Shown: positions 80-17,256 of the stretch, one piece after another
How the letters are laid out: every line of letters begins with the position of its first letter
Position numbering within the stretch: the stretch's first letter is position 1
NCBI GenBank assembly: GCA_900128585.1
Contig: LT642152.1
Location: 44,245-64,244 of the forward strand
DNA: 20,000 nucleotides
Source: Stramenopiles sp. TOSAG23-3
Taxonomy: Eukaryota
Direction: 5' to 3'
Notes under the pieces: generated by a model
The model's database searches: none
What the model was told of the DNA's origin: nothing
What the model saw: the letters and a program-made list of their open reading frames with translations, nothing else
Made by a program: the position numbers and the translations under genes

Positions 80-1669
80 TCAGAGAGTAATTTTCTTGGA
101 GGAAAGGGGCACTTTAAAGATCAAATCAAAGGACTGAAAGACATGGGTGCTGCAAACTTTTTGAAAGATGCCAAAAAGAGGAAAAAAATAGGCAAGATAG
201 CCCTAACCCCCGAATCGAGAGAGAAACGGAAGAAGCGCAAGGAAAAACGAGAGAAAGAGTTCCAGGAGAGGATGGAAAAGAAAATAGTCAAAGAAAGAGC
301 CCTATGTAAACAAATTTATGAAGGGAAAATCTTGCACTTCATGCACAAGCCAATCGGGAAGGCGTCCGTTTTGAAAAAAGGTATCGTGAAGAGGATTAAA
401 GTCGAGCTGCACAAGAAGAGGTTCCCGGTATGCATGTGCCATGTGGAAGGTTTAAAACAGCCTGTGAAATGCCATGAGGCAACCAATGCCATTGAACTGT
501 CACGAGACGCGCAAGTGCACGCCAGCGGGAAGCACCATAAAGTGATCACGCAGGATATGGAATTGTCTGAACCGGATGTGAGACGTTTTCTCCGGCTGGC
601 TCATGTTCCAGCAGAGAAATCGCCCGAAGAACGACACGATTTCGTGAAGAACACAATATACCCGCTGGTGAAGAATACTATTGTCGAAGAAGGCTTTACG
701 AAGGAGGTGGCAATGGCATTCCTTAAGCGCCACGTTCCCATCCCCACTGCGCCTAGCGATGTCACGTTTGGAAACAAGGAAGTGCCACCGCCTCCGCAAG
801 CCACGGGGGCTGCGGCCGGTGGGGTGCCGAAGGTGAAGTCTGGGCGAAGACTTCTCGCTGCAGTGCGAAAGGGAAAGAATGGTAATTGCAAATGCAAAGC
901 GAAATGGTGGTATGAGCACTTCTATTATTACGGTTGTGATGTCCGCCGCCCAGGGGGTGGAGAAGCATGGTGTTACACGAAGGGCACGTGCGAGGGCAAA
1001 CAGTACAGAACGTGTACGGATCGTGTCCAGGAGCTGGAAAAAAAAATTAAAGACTTGGAGAAAAAAGTTCCTGGGGGCAAAATCCTGAAACTCCAAAAAG
1101 CTGTCGATGCTCCAATAGCAAAAAGCTCGTTGGTCAAAAGCGGGTCTGACAAAGCACTGAAAGTAACGGACACGGATAATGCTAACTTGAACGGTGTCAA
1201 CTCGGTTGATGTGAAAGTGGGAGGGTTGAACGGGAAGACGAAGAAACTAGTGGCCGATGGTGTTACAGAAGTGCAATACATTTTCGAAATTAAAGGCAAA
1301 GAAAAATTCTTTAAGGAAGAGGAGTTGAGGTATGATAACCCCACCGGGATGATCCAGGCAGTCTATGACTGCTCAAAGAAAGGTAGCGCGAAGAAGATAT
1401 GTAGCATGCAAAAGAAGTCTGTTAAGGACCCAGTAAACCTGAAGGTGTTTGTATACCAGTCGGACTTTTTGTGCTGCAAGTACCCTGGTGGCTCAAAGGG
1501 CACCTCCTTTACCAACTGCCAAGAATTGAAGAAAGGCTGCAAACAAGACCTGACAGTATCTCGTGAATTTTCAGTAACCATCAAGGGATTTGGATATGAT
1601 GTCGCAGAGATTAAAAAGGGACGTAGAAAGCTTCTAATGCAACGTTTCCGCGGCGGTGGTGGCAGTTAA
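80..1669 (+). CDS. 5'-partial Lys/Cys-rich protein of unknown function with an FN2/kringle-like six-Cys module and RRLL/RKLL motifs
   Basis: The frame of ORF 143..1669 stays open back to the gap (80: TCA GAG AGT AAT... = SESNFLGGKGHFKDQIKGLKD-M), so the true start may be upstream. Contains CKCKAKWWYEHFYYYGC...AWCYTKGTC...YRTC (887-1015), GRRLL (842-856) and a GRRKLLMQRFRGGGGS* end. Confidence 0.8.
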   Translation, partial: SESNFLGGKGHFKDQIKGLKDMGAANFLKDAKKRKKIGKIALTPESREKRKKRKEKREKEFQERMEKKIVKERALCKQIYEGKILHFMHKPIGKASVLKKGIVKRIKVELHKKRFPVCMCHVEGLKQPVKCHEATNAIELSRDAQVHASGKHHKVITQDMELSEPDVRRFLRLAHVPAEKSPEERHDFVKNTIYPLVKNTIVEEGFTKEVAMAFLKRHVPIPTAPSDVTFGNKEVPPPPQATGAAAGGVPKVKSGRRLLAAVRKGKNGNCKCKAKWWYEHFYYYGCDVRRPGGGEAWCYTKGTCEGKQYRTCTDRVQELEKKIKDLEKKVPGGKILKLQKAVDAPIAKSSLVKSGSDKALKVTDTDNANLNGVNSVDVKVGGLNGKTKKLVADGVTEVQYIFEIKGKEKFFKEEELRYDNPTGMIQAVYDCSKKGSAKKICSMQKKSVKDPVNLKVFVYQSDFLCCKYPGGSKGTSFTNCQELKKGCKQDLTVSREFSVTIKGFGYDVAEIKKGRRKLLMQRFRGGGGS

Positions 1670-3997: not shown

Positions 3998-4022
3998 TTT
4001 AAAACAAAAAATTGGCTGTTAT
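3998..4022. repeat. Copy of dispersed element TTTAAAACAA(G)AAAATTGGCTGTTAT
   Basis: Matches 6871-6896 and 14295-14320 except for one missing G. Confidence 0.8.
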
Positions 4023-4117
4023 TTGGTTCCTCCTTTTAACGAATTAATCTCTAGAGAGAGATGACCTTCTAAAAAACCAAAATATATGCAGTTATTTAGA
4101 GATATTAATCTAAAGTT

Positions 4118-6328
4118 TTATATTGACTTATCTTGAAATGTCTCCCAATTTCCTTTTGTCGGCCCAAAACCTGCAGAGTGCGACTTTTCAGCGACAGTCT
4201 TCAGCTCCACATTTGTAAAATTACACGCTTTAGCTAGCGCTTGGTATTCCCCTCGCGTTGTCGTTTGGCTAAGCAGTGAATTGTCGCAGCATGGTACAAT
4301 AGTGATGCCAGCATCGAAAAATGCTCGGGCCGGGTGGTCCGAAATGGATGAGATGCTTCCTGTGTGCACGTTACTGCAGGGGCATATTTCAATCGCAATA
4401 TTTTTTGCTGATAGTGTGCTTTGCAACGAGCCTGATGCGCGGGCTGCAACCCCATGCCCTATCCTAGTTGCGTGCAGTCGTTCCACGGCGGTTACGATGT
4501 TCTTTTCAGCCTGCTCCGACTTCCCTTCCCCTGCATGAATGGTGATGCCAAGCCCGTTGGCGTGAACAAAATCAAACGCTTCGATGAATTTCTCTGGAGG
4601 ATGGTCATATTCATTTCCTGCCAGATCAACTCCGACCACGAGTTTGTCCAAACCATGCTTGCATGCTAATTTTGCCATTACCATAGCCTCCTCAGCCCCG
4701 AAGTCCCGCAGTATAGTAACTATTTGGTAAAATGAACACTGTGGATACGATTCCATAGCCCTGCTTAAACCACGACATACGGCATCGATAATGTCATCAT
4801 CACCCAGCCCCTCCTGGCGGTGCAGACTAGGGCAATATCGAACTTCCGCGTACGTAACGTTCGACTTCAGGTATAAATCTTCGCATATTTCATACGCTAC
4901 ACGCTCCAGCGCATCTTTATCTTGCAAGACCAGCAGTGTTGTTGCAAATGATTGGAGGCATCGCGGCAAGTCCCAACCGATTTTAAAAGCGAGGTGTTTT
5001 TCTACATCATCTGTTGACTCGAAGGTATATAAGTTGCCTTCCCCACTTTTGACTTTCTGCGAGTACAATTCGAGAAACGTTTCTGGACGCAAGCTCCCGT
5101 CCAAATGAACGTGCAACTCTGCCAGCCCACAATCAACACTCTCGAACATACCCTTGAAGTGACTTGTCAGTACTAAGTCGGCGTCGAATAGATTCTGCTC
5201 TTCACGCCCTCTTTTGGTCTGTTCAGCCGAGTCGATACGCGTTAAGCCGCAGACATTGTCGTGGTGGTCGGAGCCTAAATGGTCTTTGAAACACTGCGTA
5301 CATAGTCGAATGTCTGTAAGAGCTTGGGCAACCATTTCGCTCGATGTCGGACGTCGACCGGGCGAAATCAACAAAAGCCTTCGCAGATAGCCGCATATCT
5401 CTTGCCAGCCGGCGAGTTCCCCGGCAGACGCCATGAGCTCTTGGCACGCGTCTCGAACTACTCGAATCATCCGATTCGTCCGGCCTTTAAAAATGTCCAT
5501 GTCGTTCATGGCTGATCTTGAAAATGGCCCGTTGTCTATGACGCTTTCTTGAAAAAAAGATAAACCAAACACGGTCTCCAAAAGTGTCATGCCGCAGCTC
5601 CACATGTCTCCCGCTTTTCCATCGTATTGGGTCTCTGTGAACATCTCCGGTGGGATGAAACCTGCAGAGCCTACTGCCCCAGTTAGTTTACGAAGACCAC
5701 TGTTGCTCGGTGACGTTCGAACGGCATAGTCAAAATCTATAAGGACTGGATGACTTCGGTACCATTCCTCTCCTGGGTACAGTATTACACATATGTTTTC
5801 GGGCTTAATGTCTCGATGACACCACCCGTTTGAGTGCATGAACGCCACCGCATCGAAAAGTTTCAAAAATACTCCCAAAACAACTTGCGGCTGCGCTATT
5901 TTTTGCCCTTCAATCTGAAGCAAGTGCGTTTTTAATGACCCACCGTGCCACGGGTAAACGATCCGGCAGTGAGTTGGGCTCAAAGTCGCGCTCACGTCGA
6001 GTATACTCGTAACGCTCGGGTGCCTTGCCCCTAAATCTTTCAACGCCTTTATTTCAACCAGAAGTCGATTTTTCCGTTTTGTAAGGGCTTCTCCGCCGCC
6101 AGTTGTCCCCAGGGCCTCCCAATTAACAAATTTGCAGGCTACGCTTTCACGTACGTTTTCGCCCGTGTACCTTGTGGCTTGCACCACTGAGGTGGCACCA
6201 GTGTTGTACGTTTCTGACTCAGTTTCGTATCGATATGTTTGCGTTGATTCACCGGGGCTATCGAGAAGTGGAACAGGGAAGATGGGCTTTTCCCACTCAA
6301 GTTGTACAATTTCGTTGAACTGACTCAT
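4118..6328 (-). CDS. Ser/Thr protein kinase - adenosine deaminase family fusion protein
   Basis: One uninterrupted ORF with first ATG at 6328. N-terminal kinase motifs: VACK, alphaC E (EIKAL), HRDIKPEN, LIDFDYA, GSAGFIPPE, DMWSCG. C-terminal ADA motifs: ELHVHLDGS, YAEVRYCP, GVDLAGNE, TIHAGE, RIGHG, IEICPCSN, CCDN. Confidence 0.92.
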   Translation of the reverse strand: MSQFNEIVQLEWEKPIFPVPLLDSPGESTQTYRYETESETYNTGATSVVQATRYTGENVRESVACKFVNWEALGTTGGGEALTKRKNRLLVEIKALKDLGARHPSVTSILDVSATLSPTHCRIVYPWHGGSLKTHLLQIEGQKIAQPQVVLGVFLKLFDAVAFMHSNGWCHRDIKPENICVILYPGEEWYRSHPVLIDFDYAVRTSPSNSGLRKLTGAVGSAGFIPPEMFTETQYDGKAGDMWSCGMTLLETVFGLSFFQESVIDNGPFSRSAMNDMDIFKGRTNRMIRVVRDACQELMASAGELAGWQEICGYLRRLLLISPGRRPTSSEMVAQALTDIRLCTQCFKDHLGSDHHDNVCGLTRIDSAEQTKRGREEQNLFDADLVLTSHFKGMFESVDCGLAELHVHLDGSLRPETFLELYSQKVKSGEGNLYTFESTDDVEKHLAFKIGWDLPRCLQSFATTLLVLQDKDALERVAYEICEDLYLKSNVTYAEVRYCPSLHRQEGLGDDDIIDAVCRGLSRAMESYPQCSFYQIVTILRDFGAEEAMVMAKLACKHGLDKLVVGVDLAGNEYDHPPEKFIEAFDFVHANGLGITIHAGEGKSEQAEKNIVTAVERLHATRIGHGVAARASGSLQSTLSAKNIAIEICPCSNVHTGSISSISDHPARAFFDAGITIVPCCDNSLLSQTTTRGEYQALAKACNFTNVELKTVAEKSHSAGFGPTKGNWETFQDKSI

Positions 6329-6869
6329 CGCAATACTGTAAAAATCGTTTTGGCCAGTCCGGGTATCTTCTTGTCGTGCCGTTTTTTCCAACCTTCTATA
6401 TTGCCCGAAATTGAACACCCGCAGCAACAAAACGACGATAATGTTGAAAGAATTATAGAAGATTTAAAATACGAAGTATGAAAAGATACACACCCACATT
6501 TTCTTCTGCGATTCAACTATTTTTTAAAAATTATTATTATTATTATTTATTATTAGTAGTCGTCCAATAATTAATAATATTTTCTTCTTCTCTCCTCCTC
6601 TCCTCTCTCCTCTCTCCTCTTCTTCCCTCTCTCTCTATTTTTTTCTTCTCTTTCTTCTTCTTCTTCTTCTTCGTCGTGTTGTTGGTTGTTGTGGGTGGTG
6701 TGTGGTGTATGTCGTCGGGGTTCCTTTTTTTTCTTACCCCCTTTCGGATACCTGGTAGTACGGGTACCGTTATGTAATAAACAAACGCAACCAACCGTAG
6801 TATTAATAATAGATTCACAAGTTTATCATTAATATTTTTACTGTTTCAGGAACAAATTATATAGTATGT

Positions 6870-6896
6870 TTTTAAAACAAGAAAATTGGCTGTTAT
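6870..6896. repeat. Copy of dispersed 27-bp element TTTTAAAACAAGAAAATTGGCTGTTAT
   Basis: Identical to 14294-14320. Confidence 0.85.
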
Positions 6897-7154: not shown

Positions 7155-8231
7155 TTAGAAAGAAAATTTGAAATTTCTCAATGCATTTATGTACATACTG
7201 ACACTTGCCATAGTCCGAGACAAGCTTTTTGCGGCAGTGTTTGATCTCATTAGTTTTGCCTCTTCCGACAAAATTGCATCCCATTTCGTTTGACCGACGT
7301 AACCCCAGTACGCCGCTACGAAAACAACAATATGCATGATGCTGTGGGACGAAAAATAGTCAAACATGTTTTCTGGGAGTCCTAGCTTTTTTGCAAGGCC
7401 CGGAAACCGTTCTGGGACGCCGGTGCTAAAAATCACGCCCCCTAACGCGCCCAAAAACGAGGACACGGGCATATGCTGCAAAACCAACGCTACCTTCATC
7501 TTTCCAGACGCGCCACGACTGTGAAGGTACTCGCGGACGACTGGCACGACAATGCAGCTGGTAACGCTTGCCAACGTTAAAAATTTTGCATATTTTGGCA
7601 TACCAGCGCCAAAGAATACCGCCAGGGTAGACGCAGAACCCACCAACGACGTGCCAATAGTAAACTTCCGCAGCAACTCGTGCTCTCCACGCGTGCCAAA
7701 ATGCTGGTACCCTGCAACGATGCTGAAACAGGTAAAATAGGCGGCTATCGAGGACCGGTCGATTCGAAACATTATGTCTTCCACGAACTCTGAGTAGCAC
7801 GATGTGCAATGGGCAAGGGTTGACGCCCCGAAAAGGCCCGCCCCTCCCAAAGCAACCCATCGGGAAGGCCATGCAGGGTTGTGCTGCTTAAAACTATTGT
7901 AATAGTAAAGGGACGCAAAAAAATGAGTCCAAACGTTGCAAATTTCATTATGTCCACACCCACAACTGCACACACAGAACAGGCAGGACGGGGTGACTTT
8001 CCGGTACCCCGTGCGAACGTAAGGAAAAATTCTCCAACCATCGCCTTTTGCTTTCAATTTGTCTACATGCTCTAATTCAATATCTTTGTCGTCCAAGTAG
8101 ACCTTTTTGTAGATCTTCCAGAGTACCTTACTGGCCGCCATTGCAGCCAGTGTCTGAAGGCAGGTCTTGGTGAATACCCGCGGAGTATTCGCCGCCATGG
8201 TCCGCTCAATGCGCTCCTTTATGTAAGCCAT
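7155..8231 (-). CDS. PAQR / hemolysin-III family (adiponectin/progestin receptor-like) membrane protein
   Basis: Family motifs PYVRTGYR, HNEICNVWTH, STLAH (SxxxH), RIDRSSI, PERFPG and FDYFSSHSIMH (HxxxH), with multiple hydrophobic segments. Confidence 0.93.
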   Translation of the reverse strand: MAYIKERIERTMAANTPRVFTKTCLQTLAAMAASKVLWKIYKKVYLDDKDIELEHVDKLKAKGDGWRIFPYVRTGYRKVTPSCLFCVCSCGCGHNEICNVWTHFFASLYYYNSFKQHNPAWPSRWVALGGAGLFGASTLAHCTSCYSEFVEDIMFRIDRSSIAAYFTCFSIVAGYQHFGTRGEHELLRKFTIGTSLVGSASTLAVFFGAGMPKYAKFLTLASVTSCIVVPVVREYLHSRGASGKMKVALVLQHMPVSSFLGALGGVIFSTGVPERFPGLAKKLGLPENMFDYFSSHSIMHIVVFVAAYWGYVGQTKWDAILSEEAKLMRSNTAAKSLSRTMASVSMYINALRNFKFSF

Positions 8232-14293: not shown

Positions 14294-14320
14294 TTTTAAA
14301 ACAAGAAAATTGGCTGTTAT
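14294..14320. repeat. Copy of dispersed 27-bp element TTTTAAAACAAGAAAATTGGCTGTTAT
   Basis: Identical to 6870-6896. Confidence 0.85.
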
Positions 14321-14798: not shown

Positions 14799-16382
14799 TT
14801 ACCGCCTTGCTCCAAACCCGTCACCCTCGAAGTTTGTTTTCTTGTGCCCACACCTATTGAACACGCCCGTGCCATCGTTACCGTTTTCGTTCCCGTCGCA
14901 ATCTGCGTTTTCGTACGCAGTCTCGTAATAATTGGTGTAATACGTTGAATAAAACCCTGCGTAGTACATTGCATAATACAACTGTGAAGGCGCGTAGTTG
15001 CAGTACTGACAGTACACCTTCTTGTGGAAACAATAGTAGCAGTAGTAGTCCTGCAGAGGATTGTGCGTCATGGAATGCATCAGCGCTGGAATAATTGAGT
15101 GAGTCAGGGACTTTCCAAGAATAGACGAAATGCCGTTAGCGGTCAAACGAGAAATTTGGACCCCCGTGTCCTCGGTTGCTTTAACCGATGACGCCTCTGT
15201 CAACGAGCTGGTTAAACTCGAGGTCAACACCGGGGCCAAACCATCGGTAACGAGTTTAGGGACGACTTCGTGCAGGCTCCCAGAAACAGATTCTATGACC
15301 GAGTCCACCATGGATTCGTGGGCCGACTGAAGGATTTTTTCGCCCATTTGCGACCCCATACGGGGAATAAGTTCTCTGTACACATCGCGCTTTATATTCA
15401 TGGCGAGCTCCTCCGGCATTTGCATGGCTAGGGTACCGCCGACAATTAGTGCCTCGTGGGTCAACCACCTGTCCATGGTGGCCGCCCAAACTGTTGCAAC
15501 TTGTCCGTCGGCCAGGCCTGCTACTTTGTCCATGTACTCATCCACTCCCACCCACTGGGTTTGTAAGTGCGACATGTCCATAGACGACAGCTCTGCTAAC
15601 GATGTTAACTTTCCATTCATCATGTGGCCTTTTAGTTTTGCCATAAGGGCAATGTCATTTACGTCTATTTGTGTGACGGGCTTTCGCCCTGGTGTGCACT
15701 TGCCACGCTTTCCCAGACGGAAGCGCCTTGAAGTGCCCGCTACAGGTTTCCCCTGCGCGTTTGTCAGCAGTACTTTCTCGCGAATTATCTGCTCTGGCGG
15801 GGGCAGAAAGCGCAAGCGACAACTTTCAATATCCTCTTCACTCATAACGTGGTGAGAATACCCGTGCTTCAGCGAGTAATTTAAGAACAAAAACGCCTGG
15901 TATGTGTTGTTATGGACCGCAGGCCCCCCAAAGAGGCTCGGAAGCGTTGCCGGACTTGTCGTGGACAACCGATCGATTACATTTAAGTTCGTTGGCGGTT
16001 TCTCCAAGTTGAAAACAGGGTTGTGCACATCGTCTTTCTCGTCGGAGACGGGCTGGAACGATTCAAATATCCTATTCCCGCATATCATTCTGGTACTACC
16101 TGCTAATGATTTGGAAGAATCGTAATGTATCGTTTCATTGAACTGCACGGAAAAAACAGCGGCCGTGTAGTAATATGGAAGTCGAGGCTCTCCCTTGCAG
16201 TTCTGGGGCGAGTGCGACGTGCATTCGGTTTCCCACTCAAAGCCGATTGATCTTATCTCGACACTGGTTTTTTCTATGGGTATATGGCCGTGTGCGCTAT
16301 TCGACCCACCACATCCTAGACTCAGACACATACACACAAACATCAATGCCCGTGGCATCGGCAATTGTACCACGCCCCCCAT
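14799..16382 (-). CDS. Unknown, probably secreted protein with a long tetrad-repeat region and Cys/Tyr-rich C-terminal motif
   Basis: Long ORF with coding-like composition. The start is uncertain: ATG 16382 (MGGVVQLPMPRALMFVCMCLSLGCGG) gives a signal-like leader, there are other in-frame Mets nearby, and the frame is open to about 16595. Ends DYYCYYCFHKKVYCQYCNY...YYAMYYAGFYSTYYTNYY. Confidence 0.85.
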   Translation of the reverse strand: MGGVVQLPMPRALMFVCMCLSLGCGGSNSAHGHIPIEKTSVEIRSIGFEWETECTSHSPQNCKGEPRLPYYYTAAVFSVQFNETIHYDSSKSLAGSTRMICGNRIFESFQPVSDEKDDVHNPVFNLEKPPTNLNVIDRLSTTSPATLPSLFGGPAVHNNTYQAFLFLNYSLKHGYSHHVMSEEDIESCRLRFLPPPEQIIREKVLLTNAQGKPVAGTSRRFRLGKRGKCTPGRKPVTQIDVNDIALMAKLKGHMMNGKLTSLAELSSMDMSHLQTQWVGVDEYMDKVAGLADGQVATVWAATMDRWLTHEALIVGGTLAMQMPEELAMNIKRDVYRELIPRMGSQMGEKILQSAHESMVDSVIESVSGSLHEVVPKLVTDGLAPVLTSSLTSSLTEASSVKATEDTGVQISRLTANGISSILGKSLTHSIIPALMHSMTHNPLQDYYCYYCFHKKVYCQYCNYAPSQLYYAMYYAGFYSTYYTNYYETAYENADCDGNENGNDGTGVFNRCGHKKTNFEGDGFGARR

Positions 16383-17256
16383 GCTTGGTTCCAGTCGTCT
16401 CCAACGCAACGGTCCAAAGTGCCCAAACGAGCAAATGCCAGAACAGGAGCTTGGCAGTATGGTCTGTTCGAAACGTTTGAACACCTTTCCACAAAAATAA
16501 ATGGTGATGGTGAATGCTGTTAAATATCCAACCATTCGGCGGCAGCACAGAATTGTGCGGCTAACATTTATCTTATGTATTGCATGGCAGTCCACAGTTC
16601 ATCGCTTTCAACGTATTTATTATTAAACCAAACTTTAAATTTCTATTATTTGATCAGTAGTATCATCGGAATTATTTGTTTTATTATAAGAAGATAGTAG
16701 CTAGCTCATCATCATTATTATTAATTCTGTTTCTTTCTTCGTCTTCTTCTTCGGCCTCCTTTCTTCTATTACGTATATGATGGTGCATTCCTGTAAAGAA
16801 ATATTAATACAACTATGTACACTATAATACAAGCCCCCCCCCCTCTTTTCCCTTTTCCCTTTTCCCTTTTCCTCTCTCTAAAATTATTGCGTTTTTAAAA
16901 TCATCCTAAATATACAAACGATGTTATTTATATGTAGTTAAAGTTTATGATATTCATATACTTAAATATAATATTTGATAGAATTAATTGATCATATTTG
17001 GTATAAATACAGTGTTGCTAATACATTTGTATTGAAAAAATACATCTCTAGTTTACGAATTAAAGTGTACTACGAATTATTTTGGTTACAGGTACCTGGG
17101 AACTGTGACACTGTGACAAGCCAAAACAACGACTTCTGTCTTCTTCTTCCTTGGTTCCAAGTTCCTCCTCGGTATAAGTATATAGTATGGATTATTTATT
17201 CTACGATTTTGGGTTTGAAAGAGAGTGGTTGGTTGGGTTAGTGGCTATCAATTGAT

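Follow-up and report, generated by a model that had tools for sequence, protein, structure and literature searches.

A protein kinase and an adenosine-deaminase-family domain in one open reading frame of an uncultured marine stramenopile

Can a protein kinase and an enzyme of the adenosine deaminase (ADA) family be parts of one polypeptide, and if so, does one of them control the other? This question is raised by a gene on the minus strand of contig LT642152.1 of Stramenopiles sp. TOSAG23-3 (assembly GCA_900128585.1). The gene lies within a stretch of 20,000 nucleotides (positions 44,245 to 64,244 of the contig), which is called the window here and whose own numbering is used for all coordinates. 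An earlier note, made from the letters of the window, described a kinase domain and an ADA domain in one frame with no stop codon or evident intron between them. This description is borne out by the list of open reading frames (ORFs), by translation, by Pfam and by the contigs of four marine RNA libraries, in which no joint lies inside the ORF. The gene is very probably a genuine fusion with two intact domains. Direct fusions of protein kinases with catabolic enzymes for small molecules are, to our knowledge, rare, and outside the close relatives of the window protein no other kinase fused to an adenosine deaminase came within reach of the searches described below. The host belongs to an uncultured lineage of marine protists with sequence in many ocean metagenomes and RNA libraries.

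Two domains in one reading frame

On the minus strand, 4118..6430 is free of stop codons, and the first ATG of this open frame lies at 6328. As shown in Table 1, a kinase domain, a linker and an ADA domain follow one another within the coding sequence. The Pfam family PF00069 (Pkinase) matches residues 58-333 with 91 bits against a cut-off of 31.7 (E 1e-25), and PF00962 (A_deaminase) matches residues 403-725 with 202.6 bits against a cut-off of 27 (E 1e-59), covering positions 3-318 of the 330 in the profile. Chance cannot account for either match. The GC content at third codon positions is 0.50 and 0.47 in the two halves of the gene, and slightly higher, 0.54-0.73, in the neighbouring genes. 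At the N-terminus, a helix is modelled at residues 2-10 and the predicted local distance difference test score (pLDDT) falls below 50 at residues 17-31. Residues M1, S2 and E6 are common to the window protein and to P0003, a diverged orthologue that is described below, with the consensus MSxx[Y/F][E/N]Q, and stand-alone relatives of the kinase begin alike, with MSLYEQ or MAYQY. Because the N-terminus is conserved in both, the ATG at 6328 is taken as the true start.

Table 1. Features of the kinase-ADA gene and of its 3' flank, in window coordinates
Feature	Position	Strand	Description and basis
Whole coding sequence	4118..6328	-	736 codons + TAA, intron not evident; ORF list, translation
N-terminal segment, residues 1-33	6230..6328	-	short conserved helix, then low-confidence stretch
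Kinase domain, residues 34-333	5330..6229	-	eukaryotic-type Ser/Thr, CAMK-like fold, orphan family; Pfam, model
VACK, ATP-anchoring lysine K66 (VAIK equivalent)	6131..6142	-	translation; invariant with P0003; CK kept in the stand-alone family
Catalytic to magnesium loop, HRDIKPEN ... DFD (H171-D200)	5729..5818	-	translation, alignment of 37 kinases
Interdomain linker, residues 334-393	5150..5329	-	poorly conserved, 60 residues
ADA domain, residues 394-725	4154..5149	-	complete (beta/alpha)8 barrel; Pfam, TIGR01430, model
HVHLDGS, zinc ligands H406/H408 (mouse H15/H17), D410 (mouse D19)	5093..5113	-	alignment to 2ada, translation
HAGE, zinc ligand H598 (mouse H214), catalytic E601 (mouse E217)	4526..4537	-	alignment to 2ada, translation; invariant in ADA alignment A4
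RIGHG, catalytic H625 (mouse H238)	4451..4465	-	alignment to 2ada, translation, alignment A4
CCDNS, zinc ligand D682 (mouse D295), then N683 (mouse D296)	4277..4291	-	alignment to 2ada, translation
Dispersed intergenic motif (AACAGCCAATTTT)	4008..4020	-	98-110 nt past the stop codon

The two domains were folded separately, since MAFFT places kinase-only sequences onto the ADA region when kinase-only and ADA-only relatives are mixed. The AlphaFold2 model of the kinase domain, obtained with an alignment of 37 rows, has a pLDDT of 85 and a predicted template-modelling score of 0.86 and shows the bilobal kinase fold. Its best Foldseek matches are PhK gamma 2, SIK3, CaMKII, ULK1 and CASK of the CAMK group (E about 1e-14, probability 1.00), with target-normalised template-modelling (TM) scores of 0.65-0.81 among the matches listed. 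The full catalytic set of K66, E92, D173, N178, D198 and E228 is retained, and H171, R172, D173, K175, N178, D198, P227, E228 and D241 are invariant in the 37 aligned kinases, with R326 nearly so. Two elements depart from the usual form. The glycine-rich loop reads NTGATSVV, with one glycine where GxGxxG has three, and is degenerate across the whole orphan family. The DFG motif is replaced by DFD in the window protein, in P0003 and in the stand-alone members other than P0343, which has DFG, and P0344.

A search with residues 1-344 against 2113 candidates matched 51 proteins at E <= 1e-3. One of these is a fragment from the species of the window, and 12 are stand-alone kinases of 190-404 residues (E 1e-31 to 1e-21, 28-37% identity), all of which come from environmental assemblies or EukProt; the next match, at 5e-10, is a generic calcium-dependent kinase. 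The stand-alone kinases P0149 and P0190 were also reached by an exhaustive profile search, at 3e-45 and 1e-42. The stand-alone orphan kinases (P0334-P0343, P0149 and P0190, about 400 residues) resemble the window kinase in the motifs CHRDIKPENIC, LIDFD, GAVG(T/S)AGFIPPEMFT, YDGxAGDIWS and MxDIDVF, as well as in the conserved N-terminus and in having a degenerate glycine loop. In contrast to the window protein, they have no ADA domain and stop a few residues past the kinase domain. In a quick maximum-likelihood tree, fused and stand-alone kinases group together, apart from generic kinases, with a value of 97 in the SH-like approximate likelihood ratio test (SH-aLRT), and the order within the group is not resolved. 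As judged from its sequence, the domain is probably an active Ser/Thr kinase of the RD type with an unusual nucleotide-binding loop.

For the ADA domain, the zinc and catalytic positions had been reported in the earlier note as all present, and this was confirmed by alignment to 2ada and by translation. The four zinc ligands H406, H408, H598 and D682 are found in the alignment to 2ada and 1a4l; in alignment A4, H598 and D682 are invariant and H406 and H408 are conserved to at least 90%. G571 corresponds to mouse G184. D410 lies at the position of mouse D19, the residue that contacts the ribose 5'-OH in nucleoside-specific ADA. The sole departure among the residues checked is N683 in place of mouse Asp296, which is presumably a contact to the purine N7. 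This asparagine is not peculiar to the fusion, since the column holds Asn in 134 of the 175 nearest-relative ADA domains (Asp in 24, other residues in 17). In the clade that surrounds the fused proteins, 11 of 12 rows are of the Asp-Asn type, and the solved ADAs with printed alignments, five in each of two comparisons, are all Asp-Asp. Actinobacterial Add enzymes are probably of the Asp-Asn type as well.

The earlier note had further placed the domain outside the ADAL/MAPDA subfamily because it has HLDGS and not HLNGS. The assignment made here rests on profiles and leads to the same result. When a profile of 70 subfamily rows was compared with solved structures, the E-value was 6e-97 for Add of V. 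cholerae and 3.5e-87 for mouse ADA1, against 1.8e-69 for MAPDA (6ijm) and 3.8e-59 for human ADAL (8qch); it was 6e-71 for the adenine deaminase 3rys, 2.5e-69 for 3ou8, about 5e-53 for Cad1 and 9e-29 for ADA2. The equivalog cut-off of TIGR01430 (NCBIfam) is narrowly missed, with 214.4 bits against 216.55, and P0003 scores 201.8. The model of the domain is a complete barrel with a pLDDT of 94.8, and its Foldseek TM scores are 0.88/0.90 to 6n91 (V. cholerae) and 0.87 to mouse and human ADA1. The domain is likely to be a competent deaminase of the classical type, with adenosine or deoxyadenosine as its presumed substrate.

Integrity and spread of the fusion

The cluster of the window protein at 90% identity has 15 members, including six near-identical full-length ones of 766-770 residues, lengths that reflect prokaryote-style upstream GTG/TTG starts. 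These six stem from ENA, JGI, NCBI and Logan, on contigs of up to 63 kb. In another assembly (locus L001), the ORF differs from that of the window by one codon, T338I. Among 13 related loci on metagenome contigs, L001, from the window's own species, is the sole fused one, and one more (L002) is a truncated copy.

The fusion is also found at greater distance. The cluster of P0003 consists of P0003, five more members of 687 residues and one fragment, with the same domain order as the window protein. P0003 is 48% identical to the window protein over 96% of the query, and this identity is unevenly distributed: 37% in the kinase, 10% in the linker (residues 346-393) and 64% in the ADA domain. Such a pattern indicates two constrained domains and a free tether, unlike a read-through artefact. 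The environmental fragment P0068, of 246 residues, runs from the C-lobe of the kinase through a short linker into the ADA barrel, and 173 of its 246 residues (about 70%) match the window protein. At least three diverged lineages thus share the fusion, and the catalytic residues of both domains have withstood this divergence. The linker is shorter in P0003 and P0068 than in the window protein. In the latter it contains a Cys/His-rich stretch at residues 345-360 (CTQCFKDHLGSDHHDNVC, window ~5296-5249), a possible metal-binding motif that is absent from the other two linkers.

Much of the ORF is present in contigs of the four marine RNA libraries, with no joint, insertion or deletion inside it; such contigs cannot show the strand or the ends of a transcript, and carry-over of DNA is possible. 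A small number of population variants, too small to test for selection, is seen in these contigs and on L001. The earlier note had asked for reads across the boundary at 5330-5125. Here the result was divided: the junction is tiled without a joint by three RNA contigs, at 5001-5260, 5174-5327 and 5222-5921 (the last classed as RNA by guess only), but no single contig joins both domains.

The explanation of the fusion as an artefact, that is, as a chimeric assembly, as two adjacent genes joined by a sequencing error or as a differently spliced gene, is very improbable and has been largely refuted by the intact ORF in many independent assemblies and by the 48%-identical orthologue with identical domain order, which also dispose of the chimeric assembly that the earlier note had named as a ground for giving up the fusion. 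In its favour, besides the lack of one RNA contig that spans both domains, stand one public contig and one public gene model. The contig, L002, holds the first 244 codons at 100% protein identity (L002:685-1446, window 6328-5595) and then runs on into unrelated sequence (fibronectin-like ORFs, an Obg-like GTPase). The contig is presumably either chimeric or a truncated second copy. Because its break, at about window 5595, falls inside the kinase domain and not between the domains, it is uninformative on the domain boundary. The gene model, P0047 of EukProt (1009 residues, ab initio), joins the upstream HlyIII/PAQR gene at 8231-7155 to residue 54 of the ORF by a predicted intron of about 1 kb, so that kinase residues 1-53 are dropped. 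It is judged to be a false merger, because the HlyIII gene has its stop codon at 7155, an AT-rich spacer of about 830 nt follows, residues 1-53 are conserved in P0003 and in the kinase family, and 6189-6436 is covered by RNA contigs. This corrects a public annotation in which the gene is run together with its upstream neighbour.

The earlier note knew of no characterised kinase-ADA architecture, and this holds for the literature and the sequences covered here. No description of a kinase-ADA protein was found in the full texts searched for the architecture, and outside the proteins of the window's species, the P0003 cluster and P0068, the architecture did not appear among the sequences examined. 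In a word-indexed search of 5.8 billion proteins, limited to lengths of 404-1288 residues, 43 proteins reached E 1e-3 among 8000 scored, and two of the 43 (P0002 and P0003) carry PF00069 together with PF00962. Against 1.84 billion representatives, the exhaustive profile search produced 120,093 matches at E <= 1e-3, from which the best 150 were listed; more divergent fusions ranked below these would escape notice. Pfam was run on 32 of the 150, chosen for two matched stretches, extra length or an offset match, and none of the 32 combines a kinase with an ADA domain; they comprise tandem ADA-ADA proteins, one PfkB-ADA-ADA protein, one cytidine deaminase-ADA protein, single ADAs and two kinase-only proteins. 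When both domains were compared by local phmmer with 333 proteins, both were found in 16, namely nine from the species of the window (among them the translation of the window ORF and the merged model P0047), six from the P0003 cluster, and P0068. In the Protein Atlas, no cluster of at least 50 members joins the two families; the whole protein leads to generic kinase clusters and its ADA part to bacterial ADA clusters. P0003 had no match among viral contigs. The architecture appears to be undescribed and confined to a few related marine protists, while both of its parts come from well-known families.

Separate phylogenies of the two domains, as proposed in the earlier note, were computed, and that of the kinase was given above. 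In an IQ-TREE analysis of 37 ADA domains, the window protein, P0066 (an ADA fragment of 267 residues that lacks its N-terminus) and P0003 form a clade with ultrafast bootstrap/SH-aLRT values of 99/97. Its sister group (96/97) consists of the eukaryote-looking ADAs P0067 (which starts in mid-domain), P0070 and P0073. Environmental ADAs surround both groups, including one cluster that its source names as archaeal, and a FastTree analysis of 153 rows agrees. An ADA clade placed beside stand-alone ADAs and a kinase that groups with stand-alone kinases fit a single fusion of a pre-existing ADA gene with a pre-existing gene of the orphan kinase family.

Possible coupling of the kinase and the deaminase

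The best explanation of the whole, which we hold with slightly less than even confidence, is a real bifunctional single polypeptide in which an orphan-family Ser/Thr kinase is tethered to a classical-type ADA that it controls. Kinase gating of the ADA, taken by itself as a mechanism, is possible and is put forward with reserve. As an enzyme of purine salvage, the ADA domain would turn adenosine or 2'-deoxyadenosine into inosine or deoxyinosine, and it would be controlled by the kinase domain in cis or between subunits, either by autophosphorylation or by allostery or dimerisation dependent on ATP binding. In such a case, nucleoside catabolism could track the signalling or energy state of the cell. 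A purine-salvage ADA that is gated by its own kinase, or that signals through it, is the most likely function of the protein; the direction of control is something that we only infer.

Several points weigh against this explanation. The coupling between the two domains is itself hypothetical. The linker is unconserved and ranges in length from about 20 to 60 residues, so that it does not point to a fixed arrangement of the domains. The glycine-rich loop with one glycine and the DFD in place of DFG make kinase activity less than assured, and the near-miss at TIGR01430 together with Asn at the position of mouse Asp296 makes adenosine a likely rather than a certain substrate. Among the contigs of the four RNA libraries, none spans from the interior of the kinase to the ADA domain, and these contigs are compatible with DNA carry-over or with a separate internal transcript from near Met394. 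A docking prediction of the kinase domain against the ADA domain, run without controls or family alignments, gave a score of 0.00 and a mark of 0.34 and weighs neither way.

The first alternative is that the two domains are tethered and nothing more, with a constitutive salvage ADA and a kinase that acts on other proteins (for example, transporters or enzymes of the purine pathway), so that the fusion would provide only co-expression or co-localisation. This is unlikely, yet it accords with the long, variable and unconserved linker and with the existence of stand-alone forms of the kinase family and of the ADA clade, which means that each domain works alone elsewhere. Relatives of the ADA domain are also fused to PfkB, cytidine deaminase, Nudix and nucleoside phosphorylase domains, which suggests metabolic co-localisation as a common reason for ADA fusions. 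However, the retention of the fusion at only 48% identity argues for a tie beyond chance co-expression, without being proof of direct regulation.

In the second alternative, control runs in the opposite direction: binding or turnover of adenosine or deoxyadenosine by the ADA domain would alter the kinase, which would relay purine availability downstream. The kinase keeps all its catalytic residues and an RD-type loop, as expected for an output domain, and the ADA half is the more conserved one (64% against 37%). On the other hand, every catalytic residue of the ADA domain is kept, which would be needless for a pure ligand sensor, and it is general knowledge that a kinase-type domain on the N-terminal side of an enzyme usually regulates that enzyme, as in IRE1, RNase L and receptor guanylyl cyclases. 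The sensor role is considered quite unlikely.

The earlier note had offered three functional readings (nucleoside sensing coupled to phosphorylation, a phospho-regulated deaminase, and a nucleotide-depleting effector of stress or defence), all of which remain conjectural, and the last is the weakest of them. It would make the protein a stress or antiviral effector like Cad1 or RdrB of RADAR, in which a signal-activated kinase switches on a deaminase of adenine nucleotides (ATP to ITP) and the cell is arrested. Its precedent is Cad1 (PMC11645235), where an N-terminal sensor is joined to an ADA-family domain, which turns ATP into ITP once activated. The CARF_ADA model of PADLOC matches the ADA part of the window protein with E 3e-39, and the bacterial relative P0018 is fused to a RelA/SpoT domain. 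The ADA profile, however, sides with Add (6e-97) and ADA1 (3.5e-87), far from Cad1 (about 5e-53), and the window protein has D410 at the position of mouse D19, the presumed ribose 5'-OH contact. No RdrB match is listed for the window protein: RdrB is absent among its 19 NCBIfam families and among the 25 of 32 PADLOC families listed, and P0003 gives a fragment match of 21.5 bits to the RdrB model, against a cut-off of 800. The defence-model matches of the kinase part (mad6 and PD-T4-6 of PADLOC) reflect generic kinase similarity, and the neighbouring genes are ordinary housekeeping genes. A defence effector is therefore improbable. There is a similarly slim chance that the protein is a eukaryotic kinase-triggered switch of a nucleotide or nucleoside deaminase, a protist counterpart in logic to bacterial Cad1/RADAR, in which a stress or infection signal received through the kinase would turn the deaminase on the pool of adenine nucleotides or deoxyadenosine and the cell would be reprogrammed or arrested. 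If true, such a switch would give abundant marine grazers a new class of metabolic effector, one that is gated by a kinase.

If, as in the preferred explanation, the kinase gates the deaminase, the gene would be a compact and testable case of signalling wired into purine salvage. The fusion can also be read as a 'Rosetta stone', by which stand-alone orphan kinases and stand-alone ADAs in related organisms are predicted to be functionally linked. Its significance would rise if the kinase switches the deaminase or if the substrate is a nucleotide.

Genomic surroundings and comparison with known systems

The neighbours of the gene are assigned by Pfam to a CDP-diacylglycerol synthase, a HlyIII/PAQR protein, a Myb protein, a DnaJ protein and a Ste24-type CAAX protease, that is, to eukaryotic housekeeping functions. 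The ORFs of the window lie about 2 kb apart on alternating strands, with AT-rich spacers between them and introns not evident, and the best named relatives of one neighbour (CDS1) are those of oomycetes and a labyrinthulid, at 36-42% identity, which points weakly to a marine stramenopile as the host. Parts of the stretch are found in marine RNA libraries from several studies. No Pfam family was found at E <= 0.01 for the ORFs at 143-1669 (plus strand, 508 residues) and 14799-16595 (minus strand, 598 residues), and neither a tRNA nor an Rfam family was found in the window.

The core of the dispersed motif in Table 1 occurs in three exact copies, at 4008-4020, 6882-6894 and 14306-14318, each of which lies on the minus strand, downstream of an ORF of that strand; none of 200 shuffles reached three copies. 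A 26-nt form lies at 6871-6896 and 14295-14320, and the motif is common to many unrelated high-depth RNA contigs. It may mark a boundary of transcription units and could serve as a 3'-end or promoter element in the organism. Apparent joints in RNA contigs from 4024 to 6871-6875, which would delete the whole gene, were rejected as a real isoform: the two sides span only 20-22 letters with other letters between them, and the joints are explained by the copies of the dispersed motif at both ends. Two further features of the flanks were observed. On L001, which is otherwise 99% identical to the window, about 600 extra bases (L001:2829-3428) lie just 3' of the stop codon, relative to window 4099-4109, as an indel polymorphism. 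At 6540-6720, about 200-400 nt upstream of the start codon, a long purine-rich tract of low complexity (AG/GA repeats) lies in the AT-rich spacer.

Among known systems, the ADA half is closest to classical ADA (bacterial Add and mammalian ADA1; PF00962, TIGR01430), which is its best profile match among the solved ADA-family structures and with which it has in common the fold (TM 0.87-0.90), the zinc ligands, the catalytic Glu and His, and the equivalents of D19 and G184. The classical enzymes differ in having no kinase fusion and, in all the solved ADAs with printed alignments, in Asp at position 296, where the window protein has Asn683; the TIGR01430 score of the window protein is 2 bits under the cut-off.

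Other fusions of the ADA barrel are known from the relatives collected here: tandem ADA-ADA proteins of about 720-830 residues, PfkB-ADA-ADA (P0114), cytidine deaminase-ADA (P0192), RelA/SpoT-ADA (P0018), Nudix-ADA (P0025 and P0027) and nucleoside phosphorylase-ADA (P0033). Like the window protein, these relatives are members of the Asp-Asn subfamily of ADA, and none has a protein kinase domain. The ADA barrel is thus a module that has been fused repeatedly in the metabolism of nucleosides and nucleotides, and possibly in defence. Among the tandem relatives (P0083, P0084, P0087, P0088, P0012 and others), the second ADA-like domain of several no longer has the residues for metal binding and catalysis (HRSREFK, for instance, stands where HHHEHDN is expected), which points to a pseudo-enzyme partner.

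Cad1/CAAD (the CARF-ADA protein of type III CRISPR systems) likewise carries a signal-receiving domain N-terminal to an ADA-family domain in one polypeptide, and it is activated allosterically (PMC11645235). Its sensor is a CARF domain, whereas the window protein has a eukaryotic-type kinase, with only kinase families found by Pfam N-terminal of the ADA domain. The PADLOC CARF_ADA profile is matched over positions 261-583 of 605, which is the ADA part only. The window protein further differs in that its ADA domain is nearer to Add/ADA1, its host is eukaryotic, and no defence-gene context surrounds it.

In IRE1, RNase L and the receptor guanylyl cyclases, a kinase-type domain gates a C-terminal enzyme by nucleotide binding, phosphorylation or dimerisation. 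The effector in these proteins is an RNase or a cyclase and in the window protein a small-molecule amidohydrolase, the relation is limited to the kinase fold, and gating is hypothetical in the window protein. By analogy, the order of the parts and the proposed logic would nevertheless be the same, with a kinase-type domain placed in front of the enzyme that it may control.

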